Source: a virus
Length of the DNA: 64,000 nucleotides
IMG/VR virus record: IMGVR_UViG_3300010352_001575
Coordinates: 1-64,000 of that record
Reading direction: 5' to 3' (one strand)
The notes under the pieces are model-generated. The model was not told the DNA's origin and did no database searches. It saw only the letters and a list, made by a program, of their open reading frames with translations. Shown here piece after piece: positions 21,498 through 57,299 of the stretch. A program made the translations under genes and the position numbers. Each line of letters begins with the position of its first letter. Position 1 is the first letter of the stretch.

Positions 21498-22361
21498 CTA
21501 GTCTTTAGCCACTTCTGATTCTGTAGCAAGCGTATAATCCCATTCCCCACGAGTTCCAACTAGGCTAAACTCGTGCCGTTCAGTTTCTTCAACCTTGTAT
21601 ACTGCTACTGATTCTCCAGGAGACACCCAACTTCTGTGATCATTGTATGCTATTCGCTCGGTAGATACATACCGAGACATTCTGCCCCGTACTATTATGT
21701 TATCTCCGGAATACTTTGCTGGATCTATTTTCAACAAACACACTAAGGTACCTCTGCCGTACAGCACCCCGTCGTACTCTCGTATGGGGTGGTCAGATAT
21801 GTACGCGATATGTTTGCTCACATACCGAGCCAACTGGTGCCCTCTAGGGACATCAGCCACTTTTGAGTTAATGCAGCTATCCCACTTGGCAAACTTATAC
21901 CTTAAGTCGTTTAACTGATCACGTAGCCACCTAGCATTAACGAGCTTGTCTTTTTTAAGCTCGGACCGCGGCACCTCATACAGAACCCATACTGATACTT
22001 TATCTGAAGAGTTGGTGACATACTGCCCAGCTCTTCGCAGCTTAGAAGCGCTCAGATAAGACACCTGCCGTCGTGTAAGACTAACCGACGGAGCGGCGGT
22101 GTTGGTAGTTTCTCTGGATTCCTCGAACTCTATAGTAGTCTGGATATAGTCAGCTGCTTGTTTTTTGACTTCCAGAATAGCTTTGTCAACCGCCTTGTTA
22201 ATATCTGCTGCGTCAGACCCAACCCCCACAAAGTAGACATACGCCTTTGTAGGGGGCGGCGCGCTATTAACCCAATCCGGCAGAGGGCTAGCTACTAGGT
22301 TCTGCCCACATACCGGCACTGCAGTACCCAACAATAAGATAGCTAGCCATCTGTTTATCAT
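21498..22361 (-). CDS. secreted protein with LPP20-like N-terminal domain
   Basis: signal peptide, PDWV..YFVGVG..A..A pattern. Confidence 0.6.
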   Translation of the reverse strand: MINRWLAILLLGTAVPVCGQNLVASPLPDWVNSAPPPTKAYVYFVGVGSDAADINKAVDKAILEVKKQAADYIQTTIEFEESRETTNTAAPSVSLTRRQVSYLSASKLRRAGQYVTNSSDKVSVWVLYEVPRSELKKDKLVNARWLRDQLNDLRYKFAKWDSCINSKVADVPRGHQLARYVSKHIAYISDHPIREYDGVLYGRGTLVCLLKIDPAKYSGDNIIVRGRMSRYVSTERIAYNDHRSWVSPGESVAVYKVEETERHEFSLVGTRGEWDYTLATESEVAKD

Positions 22362-22362
22362 A

Positions 22363-22992
22363 CTATTCCTGTTTAGTAGCAGTTGCGCTAGGCGCAGCCG
22401 CTGGTTTGTTGAGGTTGGCCCACGCCTTCTCCAACACTATCTCCGCCTTTGCGTCCTGGGCCGCCCTTAGCGCACTGATGGCAGACTCGTACACCCGAGC
22501 CCTGGCTTCAGCGTAGTCTGCATTGCTAATGCTAACCAACGCATAGCAATTGTATGCATACTTAACCCCATCTTCGAGCTTCTCTTCCTGCTGCTCGTAG
22601 TAGGTGTCTTCCAGACGGATACCAGAGACATCTATGTTCTCGGACACCTTCACAATAGCGCTACGCACGTTTGACCCACCACGGTCCGTGACATTATTAC
22701 CAACCATAGCACTCCCGAACTCAACCCGGATCTTCTGCTTTATTTGCTCAACCAACTCTTTCTCTGCTTCTGCCTTGGCTTCGCGAATGCCTAGTGCCAT
22801 ATCCAGCCTATCACTAACAATGCCACGATAGAACATCTTCTTATCCTTCTCGAAGTACGGCGCCTTGGCCCAGGAAGGTATTGAACCGCCCGGGAACGAG
22901 GCTACAACTTTGCGGCTTCCAACCGGCACGCTAGTACAAGCGGCCAACCCCAACAGACTAACGCACAACAATCCAACTATTGTTTTATTCAT
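22363..22992 (-). CDS. LPP20-like lipoprotein
   Basis: LAAC lipobox, PSW, A..EA..ELVEQI..YALV pattern. Confidence 0.65.
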   Translation of the reverse strand: MNKTIVGLLCVSLLGLAACTSVPVGSRKVVASFPGGSIPSWAKAPYFEKDKKMFYRGIVSDRLDMALGIREAKAEAEKELVEQIKQKIRVEFGSAMVGNNVTDRGGSNVRSAIVKVSENIDVSGIRLEDTYYEQQEEKLEDGVKYAYNCYALVSISNADYAEARARVYESAISALRAAQDAKAEIVLEKAWANLNKPAAAPSATATKQE

Positions 22993-24978: not shown

Positions 24979-25254
24979 TTAGCTCCTAGTCGTCTTGGTA
25001 TCTATTACTTTGTCTACTAGCCTAATCCCGTCCAGGCAACACTTTAACATAACTGCATGCACTTTGTCAGTTACTTTGCCAGTGGTGCTGCCATCCGCCT
25101 GCTCGTAAATTATTGCAAACGCCGCGCAGTTGCTAGAGCACAACAGATTTGGGTTTCTCCAGCACCGGCACTCTGCTCCGCTATGCACTAGCTGGTAATG
25201 CTTGCCAGCGCTCTCAGCTACCCCGCTTTTTATGTATGTAAGTAGTTCTGCCAT
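24979..25254 (-). CDS. Cys-containing hypothetical protein
   Basis: 91 aa, GGAGA RBS. Confidence 0.6.
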   Translation of the reverse strand: MAELLTYIKSGVAESAGKHYQLVHSGAECRCWRNPNLLCSSNCAAFAIIYEQADGSTTGKVTDKVHAVMLKCCLDGIRLVDKVIDTKTTRS

Positions 25255-25270
25255 ATCTCCTCTTTATTTT

Positions 25271-25298
25271 GCCGGCCGGAGGCCATCCCCCGGCCGGC
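25271..25298 (-). other. strong GC hairpin at the 3' end of the pentamer array
   Basis: GCCGGCCGG/CCGGCCGGC 9-bp stem; no downstream U-tract. Confidence 0.7.
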
Positions 25299-25309
25299 TG
25301 ATATTCACC

Positions 25310-25825
25310 ATCACGATACCATACTTCAGGCTACTATACCGCAACTGTACAGCTCGGCGCGCAGCTATGCTGCAACCATACTCTGCCATGTGTCGTCTTG
25401 TGATACTATCACGATACTTCGACTTGCGTTGCGCTACCTTGCCATTGCAGGGCCAAACCTGGCCACGGTTCACGATACGCTACTATTGCTATATGTGACA
25501 TTGCAATACCATACCAATGCATCTCATAGCTTAACTATGCCGATACTTGGCGATGCTATGCCTCACCACTACGATGAACAACCGCGCCATACCCTTACCC
25601 TAGCTTACGAAACCATACAATTACGATACTGTGATTTGCACTTCGTCACCTTACTAATACTGCGCCCCACAAAAGACCACTACGCATGACTACACCACTA
25701 CGCGACACAGCGCGGCCGTGCATTACCGCAACAGCGCCTAAACATACAGTGAGGTACGCTACCTCTGCCATACCCGAGGATACGGTGCTTTACTGCCGCG
25801 GGACGTTAGTGTACGGGACCATACT
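25310..25825 (-). repeat. non-coding array of NGY-NN pentamers in 16 units of 5n+1 nt (candidate guide-RNA array)
   Basis: manual parse: 100 pentamers, 82 match NGYNN, 97 have a pyrimidine at position 3; one extra base closes each unit. Confidence 0.85.
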
Positions 25826-25850
25826 ATCACTTTGCGCTCTCGCTCGACCT

Positions 25851-26564
25851 CTATTTCTTGCCCTTCGCTTCCTTCATTGCAGCCGCCTCTTTTGCCATTT
25901 TCTCAAGACGAGTGCCGTAGAGTTTTCTAATCTTGGCATTGTTAGGCATTTCTTCTATCGTATAGGTGAACCTACCGTAGGAACCATTACGGAACTGTCC
26001 CAATCCCTGCAGTTCTCCATAGTCCAGCAGTTCCTTGATGGTATCCAGAGAGAAGTCCTTATCCTTACTAGGCAGCACACGGAGCATCAAGTCTATCTCA
26101 GCGCCGGCCTTAACCACATCCGACTTGGCCAGGAACACCCGGGGACCCCTCGGCCCTTCAGAACGAAGCGAGCGAGACATAGTGCCATCCGCTTCTTTGA
26201 TGTTCTTGCCATCACGGGTCAGATACAGCTTGCGCGGGTTAACGAAGAGGTACATATCAACCTTGGACTTCACTGCCTTCATACCAATCATCTCTGACAA
26301 GGCTTTTGCAGATGCCTTCAAGAAGCCGCGGAAGACATAGTCGAAAAGGAACACGCCCTTATCGTCCTTCATAAACCCAGTCCAGCCCTTTTCTTCCAGC
26401 TGCTCCACTGACTCGATCTCCTGGTCGGCCTGTTCCTGAGTGATGATCCCCTTGTCTACTGCTTCTTTCTGAATGTGGGTCCCGAAGATGTCCTTGTTCT
26501 TGGGAACTGTTCCCAGCATATCTTCCGTCATTGTGATCTTTACTTTGTATTCAATTAAGTTCAT
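25851..26564 (-). CDS. stand-alone Cas7-like RAMP-family protein
   Basis: N-terminal strand Y.VKI.M...MLG, FRGFLK helix, C-terminal Gly-rich loop GLGQFRNGSYGRF; AGGAG RBS. Confidence 0.75.
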   Translation of the reverse strand: MNLIEYKVKITMTEDMLGTVPKNKDIFGTHIQKEAVDKGIITQEQADQEIESVEQLEEKGWTGFMKDDKGVFLFDYVFRGFLKASAKALSEMIGMKAVKSKVDMYLFVNPRKLYLTRDGKNIKEADGTMSRSLRSEGPRGPRVFLAKSDVVKAGAEIDLMLRVLPSKDKDFSLDTIKELLDYGELQGLGQFRNGSYGRFTYTIEEMPNNAKIRKLYGTRLEKMAKEAAAMKEAKGKK

Positions 26565-26588: not shown

Positions 26589-26897
26589 TTACTTCTTCTT
26601 TTCCGGCAGCGATGTAGATGTTATGACCCACGGTCCCTGCCAAGGCTGCGGGTAGTACGGCTGCGGCCAAACATACGGCTGTTGAATATACGGTATTGCT
26701 ATCGTTCCGACTCCGCTGCAACCGGGACATATAACCTTAATGCCATCTAGTCGCGTCTGCGTCCCTGTACCCCCGCAGCACGGACAGGTACATTGTTCGT
26801 ATACTGGCGGTTGGGGCTGTATATAGCAATTGCTCGTGCCGGGTATTGGCTGCGCTGGCCCTGCCGAATTTGTTGCTTTCGCATCTTTGTTTTCCAT
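26589..26897 (-). CDS. Pro/Gln-rich protein with DnaJ-like CxxCxGxG zinc finger
   Basis: CPCCGGTG and CPGCSGVG. Confidence 0.6.
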   Translation of the reverse strand: MENKDAKATNSAGPAQPIPGTSNCYIQPQPPVYEQCTCPCCGGTGTQTRLDGIKVICPGCSGVGTIAIPYIQQPYVWPQPYYPQPWQGPWVITSTSLPEKKK

Positions 26898-26907
26898 AGC
26901 TGCTCCT

Positions 26908-26937
26908 ATTCTACTAAGTTTTAGGTACCTGTGTCAA
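26908..26937 (-). promoter_or_regulatory. sigma70-like promoter upstream of the RAMP unit
   Basis: TTGACA-18 nt-TAGAAT. Confidence 0.65.
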
Positions 26938-27613: not shown

Positions 27614-28603
27614 TTACTCCCATATAGGTACCTCCGTAGTTTTGGACACATAGGCCAGCATCTCGGCCTGTTTCTTTTCTTCAGCAATTTCTCTGAGTAT
27701 TGCTCTGCCTTGCTCGGTTATAGACCGACCGCAGACTGATTTGCGAGCGTAGCCCTTGGCGAACAAGTACGGCTCGTACGATTTGGCAATGTACTTAGGA
27801 TCTTCGTTTATACACAATGACATCATAGACAAGCCTACCGGCTGGCTAGCCTTGTCCAATAGGTTGAGGATGCGCAGGTCCACATCATCTAAACCATTGA
27901 TGTACACCCCGAAGTATGGCAATAGTAAGCATAGCTGTTCTGCATTTTTAATATGGTGCGTGTTTAGAAATGTAGACAGCAAGCCAATTGCGCTAATCGC
28001 CCTACGAGGTATGTTCTTGCATCGCTTCGCCACTGTGCGATATGTTTCTAGCAAGGCCAGGTTGGTATCGGGGGGGTTATTGTCGCAGCAAGAGCCTATG
28101 GCTCTTAATAATATCTCCGCAATACCGTCCTCAGTATACGGGGGTACCTCTATCCTAACCCCGAACCTATCCACCAACGGCCCAGCTAGCTCCTGCTTTT
28201 CGGTAGTCGCTCCTATTACCACCACCTTTCCATCGCAATGACTAGGCGTGTTGTCTCGTATAACCTGGTTGTCTTCCATCAGCACGTACAGCCGCTCTAA
28301 CAACTTAGGGTTAGCTGAGTGTATCTCGTCCAGGAACACGATGCACCCAGGAGGACCTATATGGTCTATTTTTGCCAGTATATCAGGGTACTCTACCGCC
28401 TCTCCGATAAACTCAGCTAAGGGCAGCCTAGACTCGTTGGCGATAATCCTAGCTAGCGTTGTCTTGCCGGTGCCTGGCAGCCCGGTTAGCAACACATGCG
28501 GCGTAGCCATCAGGTCTGTTCTAGCTGTTATAGCTACCGTTTCCGCCAGGGTCTTAACCCCGGCGGCGCCGGTATACTCAGCTAGCGATGTTGGTCTGTA
28601 CAT
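27614..28603 (-). CDS. RuvB-like Holliday junction branch-migration ATPase
   Basis: RPTSLAEYTG, HVLLTGLPGTGKTTLARIIANE, FLDEIH, IGATT, PLVDRFG, YEPYL and GR..T motifs. Confidence 0.85.
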   Translation of the reverse strand: MYRPTSLAEYTGAAGVKTLAETVAITARTDLMATPHVLLTGLPGTGKTTLARIIANESRLPLAEFIGEAVEYPDILAKIDHIGPPGCIVFLDEIHSANPKLLERLYVLMEDNQVIRDNTPSHCDGKVVVIGATTEKQELAGPLVDRFGVRIEVPPYTEDGIAEILLRAIGSCCDNNPPDTNLALLETYRTVAKRCKNIPRRAISAIGLLSTFLNTHHIKNAEQLCLLLPYFGVYINGLDDVDLRILNLLDKASQPVGLSMMSLCINEDPKYIAKSYEPYLFAKGYARKSVCGRSITEQGRAILREIAEEKKQAEMLAYVSKTTEVPIWE

Positions 28604-56651: not shown

Positions 56652-57299
56652 TCATTTGATCACCTCCAATTTCTTTATCTTCTCCCGCAAATAAGACTCT
56701 ATCTTGGCATACGATTCCTTCTCTGCCGCCCTTGCCGCCCTTGCCGCCCATACCGCCGCCTCTGCCGCCCTTGCCTCCTCTGCCGCCATTGCCGCCCATG
56801 CCGCCGCCCTTGCCGCCCATGCCGCCCAGCCGCAGCACTGTGACGCCGCCCATGCCACCTCCACTGCCGTCTTATCCGCGGCTATCCTATTCTCCTCAGT
56901 CGGATTCTTCAACCACTTCTTAACTGCTGCAATGGCAGCCCTTGGCCGGTCGTCATCGGGGTATTCCTTTTCGAATAGCCTAATGACTTGCTCTGCTGCA
57001 TAGCAGGCTAACTCTGCACTATCTTTATGGGTCCACGTATAGGCTTTCAGTATGCGCATTTCGGCATGCGCGCTCTTATCATTTTCGTGGTCGCTCTCTC
57101 CTTGTACCTCTACCAATGCGATGATGCTGCAATTTACATATCGCATTGCGTCAATGACTTTACGACTTCCATGAAAACCATTTTTACAGCATTTGATTTT
57201 GCCATCCAGTTTAGCCCATTCTCCTACCTTAGCGGGGAAAGGGCCGTGATTTGTTTCAAAGTCTGCCCTGAACGATTTCCATAACTTTATCGATTTCAT
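56652..57299 (-). CDS. phage protein with Ala/Trp-rich repeats (Imm5-like C-terminus)
   Basis: C..GFH, DDRPRAAI.A and AAWAARAA repeats encoded by GCG/GCA runs at 56720-56850. Confidence 0.65.
   Translation of the reverse strand: MKSIKLWKSFRADFETNHGPFPAKVGEWAKLDGKIKCCKNGFHGSRKVIDAMRYVNCSIIALVEVQGESDHENDKSAHAEMRILKAYTWTHKDSAELACYAAEQVIRLFEKEYPDDDRPRAAIAAVKKWLKNPTEENRIAADKTAVEVAWAASQCCGWAAWAARAAAWAAMAAEEARAAEAAVWAARAARAAEKESYAKIESYLREKIKKLEVIK

Follow-up and report, generated by a model that had tools for sequence, protein, structure and literature searches.

Our analysis has identified a phage VIPR locus whose guide array is built of short units that come and go among strains and relatives. 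The locus lies in the window, by which we mean the whole 64,000-nucleotide stretch of DNA that was analysed; it is the first part of a 177,741-base virus record, and activated sludge was the source of both sequencing runs that held at least half of the window's sampled words. With slightly better than even confidence, we propose that each exchangeable unit has the form R+(GY NNN)5-8, guides its own filament, is probably read three bases per pentamer, and addresses a separate DNA site. What was observed, and what this explanation builds on, is the grammar, the fold and family of the protein, the spread of the array through the family and the turnover of units.

The array occupies 25310..25825 on the minus strand and was parsed exactly into 16 units of five to eight pentamers each. 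Their lengths are those given in a preliminary description made from the letters alone: 31, 31, 36, 31, 41, 36, 26, 26, 26, 26, 31, 41, 36, 36, 31 and 31 nt (sum 516). The units start at 25825, 25794, 25763, 25727, 25696, 25655, 25619, 25593, 25567, 25541, 25515, 25484, 25443, 25407, 25371 and 25340. That description had also claimed that the five-base phase slips by exactly one base between units. This was confirmed with a self-trained (unsupervised) Viterbi parser in which slips of +1 to +4 were equally priced, and which chose +1 at each of the 15 junctions inside the array and again where unit 16 ends. The comparison with shuffles that had been proposed as a check gave a score of 178 for the array versus 28.3 ± 10.3 (maximum 57.8) for 40 dinucleotide shuffles. 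With slips disallowed the score was 16, and with only +2, +3 or +4 allowed it was 58, 42 and 37, respectively. The limits of the tract held but are too narrow at both ends. The parser placed a further junction at about 25826, upstream of the 16 units, with a partial leading unit of two pentamers and a junction base at 25826..25836 (minus strand), and a lone terminal GGY pentamer follows the last junction at 25305..25309 (minus strand).

Among the 100 pentamers of the window, G was found at position 2 in 85 and C or T at position 3 in 97, with positions 1 and 5 free. The earlier count of A at position 4 was reproduced (58 of 100). NGY was present in the first pentamer of 16/16 units and the last pentamer of 16/16, versus 50/68 internal pentamers, a result that agrees with the earlier claim and is partly circular because slips are put where their flanks fit. 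Within the units position 1 was as free as position 5, with a purine at that position in 15 of the 16 first pentamers, and the base trailing each unit was a pyrimidine in 14 of 16 cases. Based upon the purine/G bias at the start of the first pentamer, the "extra" base is better read as the leading G/R of the next unit. A GYA/NN register, which the window alone hinted at, was rejected, since A makes up only about 40% of position 4 within the units of relatives.

The same grammar was found across a large family. Arrays with at least three +1 slips were present in 73 of the best 80 loci (of 546 relatives) from a first viral scan. A second viral scan (best 80 of 593, for the most part from the gut) yielded arrays in 56 of 80 loci, with 662 +1 slips versus 30 others. 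In both scans +1 was the cheapest slip for the survey parser, which inflates these ratios. Four to eight pentamers were counted in 738 of 831 family units, and about 900-1,600 stored viral stretches match family motifs. In 753 units from relatives, position 1 of the first pentamer was G in 89% and free inside the unit (IC 0.05), and the base before it was unbiased. The unit can thus be written G+(GY NNN)n, in which the offset is a leading G and not a trailing pyrimidine.

The array stands 25 bases behind the stop codon of a gene for a 237-aa Vipr-family RAMP (Cas7-like) protein (25851..26564, minus strand), which was recognised by homologue search, a structural model, and structure and profile matches. 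The search returned 102 other homologues and no Pfam family over the cut-off. The model (pLDDT 94.7) has a RAMP fold with thumb and G-loop, its best PDB match being a type VII Cas7 (E 4e-9), and a comparison of SUSP1 Vipr with the family alignment of the window protein gave a probability of 85 (E 6.6e-6). A RAMP/Cas7-fold gene related to SUSP1 Vipr with an array behind it identifies a phage VIPR locus. In the G-loop, Q190-F191-R192 of the window protein align with D177-W178-R179 of SUSP1, and H17 of SUSP1 aligns with T19 in a weak single-sequence alignment. According to the available part of the preprint 2026.04.26.720927, G1 of GGY is read by H17 and D177 in SUSP1 Vipr. Both G1-readers are therefore replaced in the window protein (H17 by T19, subject to the weak alignment, and D177 by Q190), and the G-loop residues that read G2 and Y3, F191 and R192, are retained. 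An extra C-terminal helix (residues 209-236, 25851-25940) was absent from 19 close homologues among the matches listed. No close Vipr was found in cultured phages or plasmids, and the metagenome and genome scans returned two and five Vipr loci, respectively, all distant.

The other end of the array is marked by a 12-bp GC-rich hairpin (25271..25298, minus strand; −28.9 kcal/mol for a 60-nt stretch). Since A and not U follows it, this is not a typical intrinsic terminator, and a hairpin at z<-2 was found 3' of only 12 of 61 related arrays. One contig of run X7 matched 25240-25269 with both flanks unrelated, perhaps from a strain without the hairpin and array end or from another organism. The array itself folds no better than shuffles (z −1.8), and an Rfam search of the locus returned nothing. 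Upstream of vipr is a 102-aa ORF with a Cys-rich motif and a weak Pfam Anti-TRAP match (26589..26897, minus strand; E 0.04). A sigma-70-like promoter match at 26908..26937 (minus strand; 11/12 positions, a consensus match only, with 4 sites in the region versus 2.6 in shuffles) could drive this ORF, vipr and the array, and we predict that the array would be co-transcribed with vipr. The 102-aa ORF is no conserved vipr partner, with 0 tblastn hits in 194 related loci; the same search with six vipr neighbours, as candidates for the accessory vap gene that is usual though not universal in VIPR, gave 0 hits at E<1e-3. Two adjacent lipoprotein-like genes (one with a weak LPP20 match) and a RuvB-like ATPase lie near the locus (21498-22992 and 27614-28603). 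Elsewhere, the window contains a 35-nt duplication (1545-1625) and a GC-rich tandem tract of 9/30/39 nt (56721-56828).

The locus shares several features with known VIPR systems. It is a minimal non-CRISPR locus in a virus, with a RAMP protein that has a thumb and G-loop and is homologous to Vipr, and its adjacent pentamer repeats are of the NGY (YNNNG) variant, GGY standing only at unit starts. Like the Type II VIPR of E. coli phage SUSP1 and a P. fulva prophage, as far as the available text describes them, it combines a homologous Vipr that keeps F191/R192 with five-base guide steps. In contrast, those systems have a vap gene, use a two-base code that skips a base, and carry 9-16 GGY/NN repeats on each guide together with a structured 3' tail, whereas the locus in the window has five to eight steps per unit, no tail per unit and no conserved partner among 194 related loci. 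In the window family G is fixed only at unit starts, and the G1-readers are replaced. The backbones of Class 1 CRISPR systems (type VII Cas7 and III-A Csm3) share the RAMP fold, thumb and G-loop; however, they take a six-base step with one base flipped, and the window array takes a five-base step with a fixed GY. A Pfam scan of 14 genes returned no cas family, and the window contained no CRISPR-like tandem array, which is inconsistent with a CRISPR-Cas repeat-spacer locus.

A closer likeness is to the staggered vrRNA arrays with a 1-nt overlap that are named in the legend of fig. S18 of a recent preprint, whose methods also name YNNNG repeats (bioRxiv 10.64898/2026.04.26.720920). In both cases a phage RAMP gene stands beside abutting units offset by one nucleotide, such that one unit's end is the next one's start, and YNNNG corresponds to the NGY variant of the window with its free first G. 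The architecture of the array is probably that of fig. S18, on the strength of the legend's wording and of our reading of "1-nt overlap" as the +1 slip. The preprint gives this architecture one legend; its sRNA-seq confirmed only ribozyme and single-guide architectures, and its text has no targets, turnover or YNNNG code for this one. Our literature search found no VIPR papers beyond this and three related preprints. In the parts of their text that were available, "stagger" occurs 0 times in 2026.10.15.759431, repeat units are modelled as XYZNN in 2026.10.21.760802, and a three-base code is absent from all four (2026.04.26.720920, 2026.04.26.720927, 2026.10.15.759431 and 2026.10.21.760802), figures and supplements aside. 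What our analysis adds to the naming in fig. S18 is a family-wide grammar, the turnover of units and pentamers, and a suggested three-base code.

The preliminary description had proposed comparing related phages for the gain or loss of whole units, and the comparison showed that units of 5n+1 nt come and go both in strains and in gut relatives. Eight of 16 listed runs entered the strain comparison, with X4, X5 and X7 covering little or none of the array and with low depth in those contigs that differed in it. None of the 16 runs listed contained raw small-RNA reads. X2 matched the array without differences over its covered length. In X3 and X10, which come from one study, 30 bases between units 2 and 3 were replaced by 87, a net gain of 57 (26+31), and a new unit had entered directly after the first pentamer of unit 4. 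One X8 contig had cleanly lost unit 1 (net −31), lacked one pentamer of unit 3 (−5), carried an added 31-nt unit ahead of unit 4 (+31) and was 21 nt shorter across units 8-9, where the alignment is poor. Unit mosaics were also seen in 16 related gut phages. Nine clean indels in the gut arrays passed our filters (5, 20, 20, 20, 26, 26, 31, 62 and 171 nt), of which four are of pentamer length and five of unit length. Three of the latter could be placed exactly on junctions, one lay within 6 nt and one was 10 nt off. Every indel seen, in strains as in relatives, kept to the phase rule, all nine of these lengths included; the script flagged the 171-nt and one 20-nt indel as misfits, which we read as artefacts of junction counting. 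Taken together, this evidence at the DNA level points to units as the currency of turnover.

The description had further interpreted the +1 base as the end of a filament or a processing site, so that the tract would encode about 16 separate guides. The units do behave as separate modules; part of the indels are whole pentamers inside units, and one unit-length indel breaks 10 nt off a junction. About 16 separate guides is plausible, but target searches gave nothing under any code. A different reading, which we consider improbable, is that the array acts as one long unprocessed RNA or as guides spanning two or more units, the +1 base being a hinge or bulge inside them. In accord with it, searches of the locus turned up neither a nuclease or ribozyme nor an Rfam family, its units have no tails of their own, and published vrRNAs have 9-16 repeats (10.64898/2026.04.26.720920), equal to about two of our units. 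Two 151-nt metatranscriptome contigs from one RNA run also span junctions, with the limit that assembled contigs hide RNA ends and that DNA may be present. However, units have been gained, lost and rearranged one by one, independently of each other, and the natural-neighbour signal described below ends at junctions. An uncut scaffold bearing separate filaments would fit our preferred explanation as well.

With regard to the code, a reading of two bases with one skipped predicts that position 1 is unrelated to the next variable base. Results showed that the bases flanking GY carry the bias of natural adjacent dinucleotides (mean 0.009-0.014 versus 0.0136 expected; z 3.5-4.3; 549 units), with Y=T (z 2.2) as with Y=C (z 2.1), and in each half of the loci (z 3.3 and 1.8). 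Genomic N-GY-N bias does not explain this signal. It was absent across junctions (z 0.09), fell to z 2.4 when last pentamers were dropped, and was replicated in new gut loci (z 2.6, or 1.7 with those pentamers left out). Permutation of blocks within units gave z 3.9 for the contiguous code in 464 environmental units and 3.1 in 220 gut units, and at most 1.4 for four other codes; with internal blocks only the values were 3.3 and 0.9. Markov models with permutation of the first base gave z 4.2-5.0 and 2.7-5.5. The signal persisted when repeated triplets and ribosome-binding motifs were taken out, and it vanished in a control with reversed block order. A control model of the physical guide sequence gave z 3.0 in gut and 1.1 in environmental units, which weakens the gut subset.

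Among 13 motifs tested in 684 decoded units, AGGAGG was found in 14 (7.3 expected, p 0.0075) and GGAGGT in 11 (3.8 expected, p 0.0025), each in all three phases. Reverse-strand five-mers were enriched too (10 versus 4), and TATAAT was not. Stop codons were not significantly depleted in the triplet frame (106 versus about 119). In the window itself, the 15 units tested had no contiguity signal (z −0.5 and 0.4), and the 58% A at position 4 was counted against the three-base code. Across the family, the joined three variable bases statistically behave like contiguous natural DNA. These statistics, along with the replaced G1-readers, suggest a three-base code with no skip.

It is also possible that the same staggered multi-guide system uses the published code, in which only positions 4 and 5 of each pentamer take part in pairing and one target base is passed over, position 1 being a relaxed scaffold G that drifts or records the skipped base; we judge this rather unlikely. 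In SUSP1 and P. fulva the published code has been proven, and its geometry is the same as that of the three-base reading, with three target bases per pentamer. Our contiguity tests fit a paired base and one simply recorded at acquisition equally well. Of the four listed X8 substitutions in units 6-7, which align well, two are at position 1, one is at position 2, one at position 3 and none at 4-5, a distribution that leans towards the canonical NN code on a tiny sample. On the other hand, under that code a unit would specify only 10-16 bases, and free drift would leave position 1 without the natural-neighbour correlation that it has with the following variable base. Nor does position 1 change faster: substitution rates at positions 1, 4 and 5 were equal (0.088, 0.097 and 0.090) in 151 close pairs. 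In addition, a search of 448 units in frame against 442,000 codons, including the NN-skip reading, gave no excess over shuffles.

Based on published VIPR work, we predict that one Vipr subunit would sit on each pentamer, that the Vipr filament would bind double-stranded DNA and that the outcome would be the silencing of rival phages or elements. In the staggered three-base explanation that we prefer, each unit would form its own short filament on a separate site of 15-24 nt. The family statistics and residue changes are consistent with a unit that would be read as an unbroken string of three variable bases per pentamer, the freed first base lying opposite the base that SUSP1 VIPR skips. The leading G would be the register break at each unit; because a one-base offset would break the register of the filament, each unit would act alone. 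We also advance, as a tentative idea that falls somewhat short of even odds, that the large family has a second code. Each of its guides would write out 15-24 nt of foreign DNA without a gap, often from a ribosome-binding region, with GY after every third base and a G in front, and whole cassettes would be added to or dropped from a tail-less array.

Should the three-base reading be true, VIPR would have more than one code, guides of 26-41 nt would keep a CRISPR-like specificity, and one short transcript could multiplex at least 16 guides with a single 237-aa protein. The guide would then be a punctuated copy of contiguous DNA, which would make guide acquisition in VIPR testable. The second-code idea, if correct, would amount to an RNA-guided system intermediate between the gapped pairing of VIPR and the contiguous pairing of CRISPR, and would imply a templated process that writes new guides. 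If the three-base reading is false, the locus is a well-formed new VIPR member only. In either case, the staggered architecture, which was named in one 2026 preprint and not validated there, gains DNA-level evidence of turnover from the window and its relatives.

With the aim of identifying targets, units were searched against several sets of DNA, always with shuffled or permuted guides as controls. No target rose above the controls for the 16 window units under nine codes against their own genome and 80 loci, for 112 gut units against neighbourhoods and whole contigs, for 308 and 198 gut units against larger gut sets, or for 464 environmental units against 3.6 Mb. Gut units searched against up to 3.8 M distinct 16-mers gave 3 real versus 0 permuted matches at E<0.01. 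Since the DNA searched came mostly from sibling phages, the blank result is weak evidence. The lack of targets, and a G at position 2 in only 85% of the window's pentamers, would fit a tract that does not encode guides, either a decayed micro-satellite or an array bound at the DNA level. This we regard as very improbable in view of the tight linkage of arrays to Vipr genes in most loci, the hypervariable positions, the strict conservation of phase in indels, and adjacent triplets that are not duplicated above chance (111 versus 102 ± 8).

Several candidate matches were set aside. In the viral_contigs motif scans, unit 12 of the window gave 91 hits, the best of which (21/24) is at chance level, and a unit of locus L231 gave 120 hits (best 20/24). 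For a unit of locus L188 there were 58 hits; one gut phage family supplied many of them (20/27) and a second family reached 21/27, and other units did not converge on the same phages. Two gut units read contiguously match phage genes, at L087:8434 (15/15) and L215:5567 (17/18), with position 1 at codon third positions, and are not significant after multiple testing. The L215:5567 match is to what we take to be an exonuclease motif. A match at L100 to what is presumably an antirepressor-like motif is likewise not significant after the number of tests.

Some loci of the family depart from the common pattern. In the arrays of L071, L047 and L062, A occupies position 3 in 18-29% of pentamers, so that some Vipr relatives tolerate GA for GY. 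A Pirellulaceae genome has, next to a Vipr gene, an array (L083:10652-10904) of short repeated units with several four-base slips, unlike the usual +1. On the opposite strand of one staggered-array locus (L045:215-309, minus), there are 19 slip-free pentamers, possibly a second guide of canonical length. Finally, L035 and L039 are the same Vipr-array locus present twice, in opposite orientation, on one 150-kb contig.
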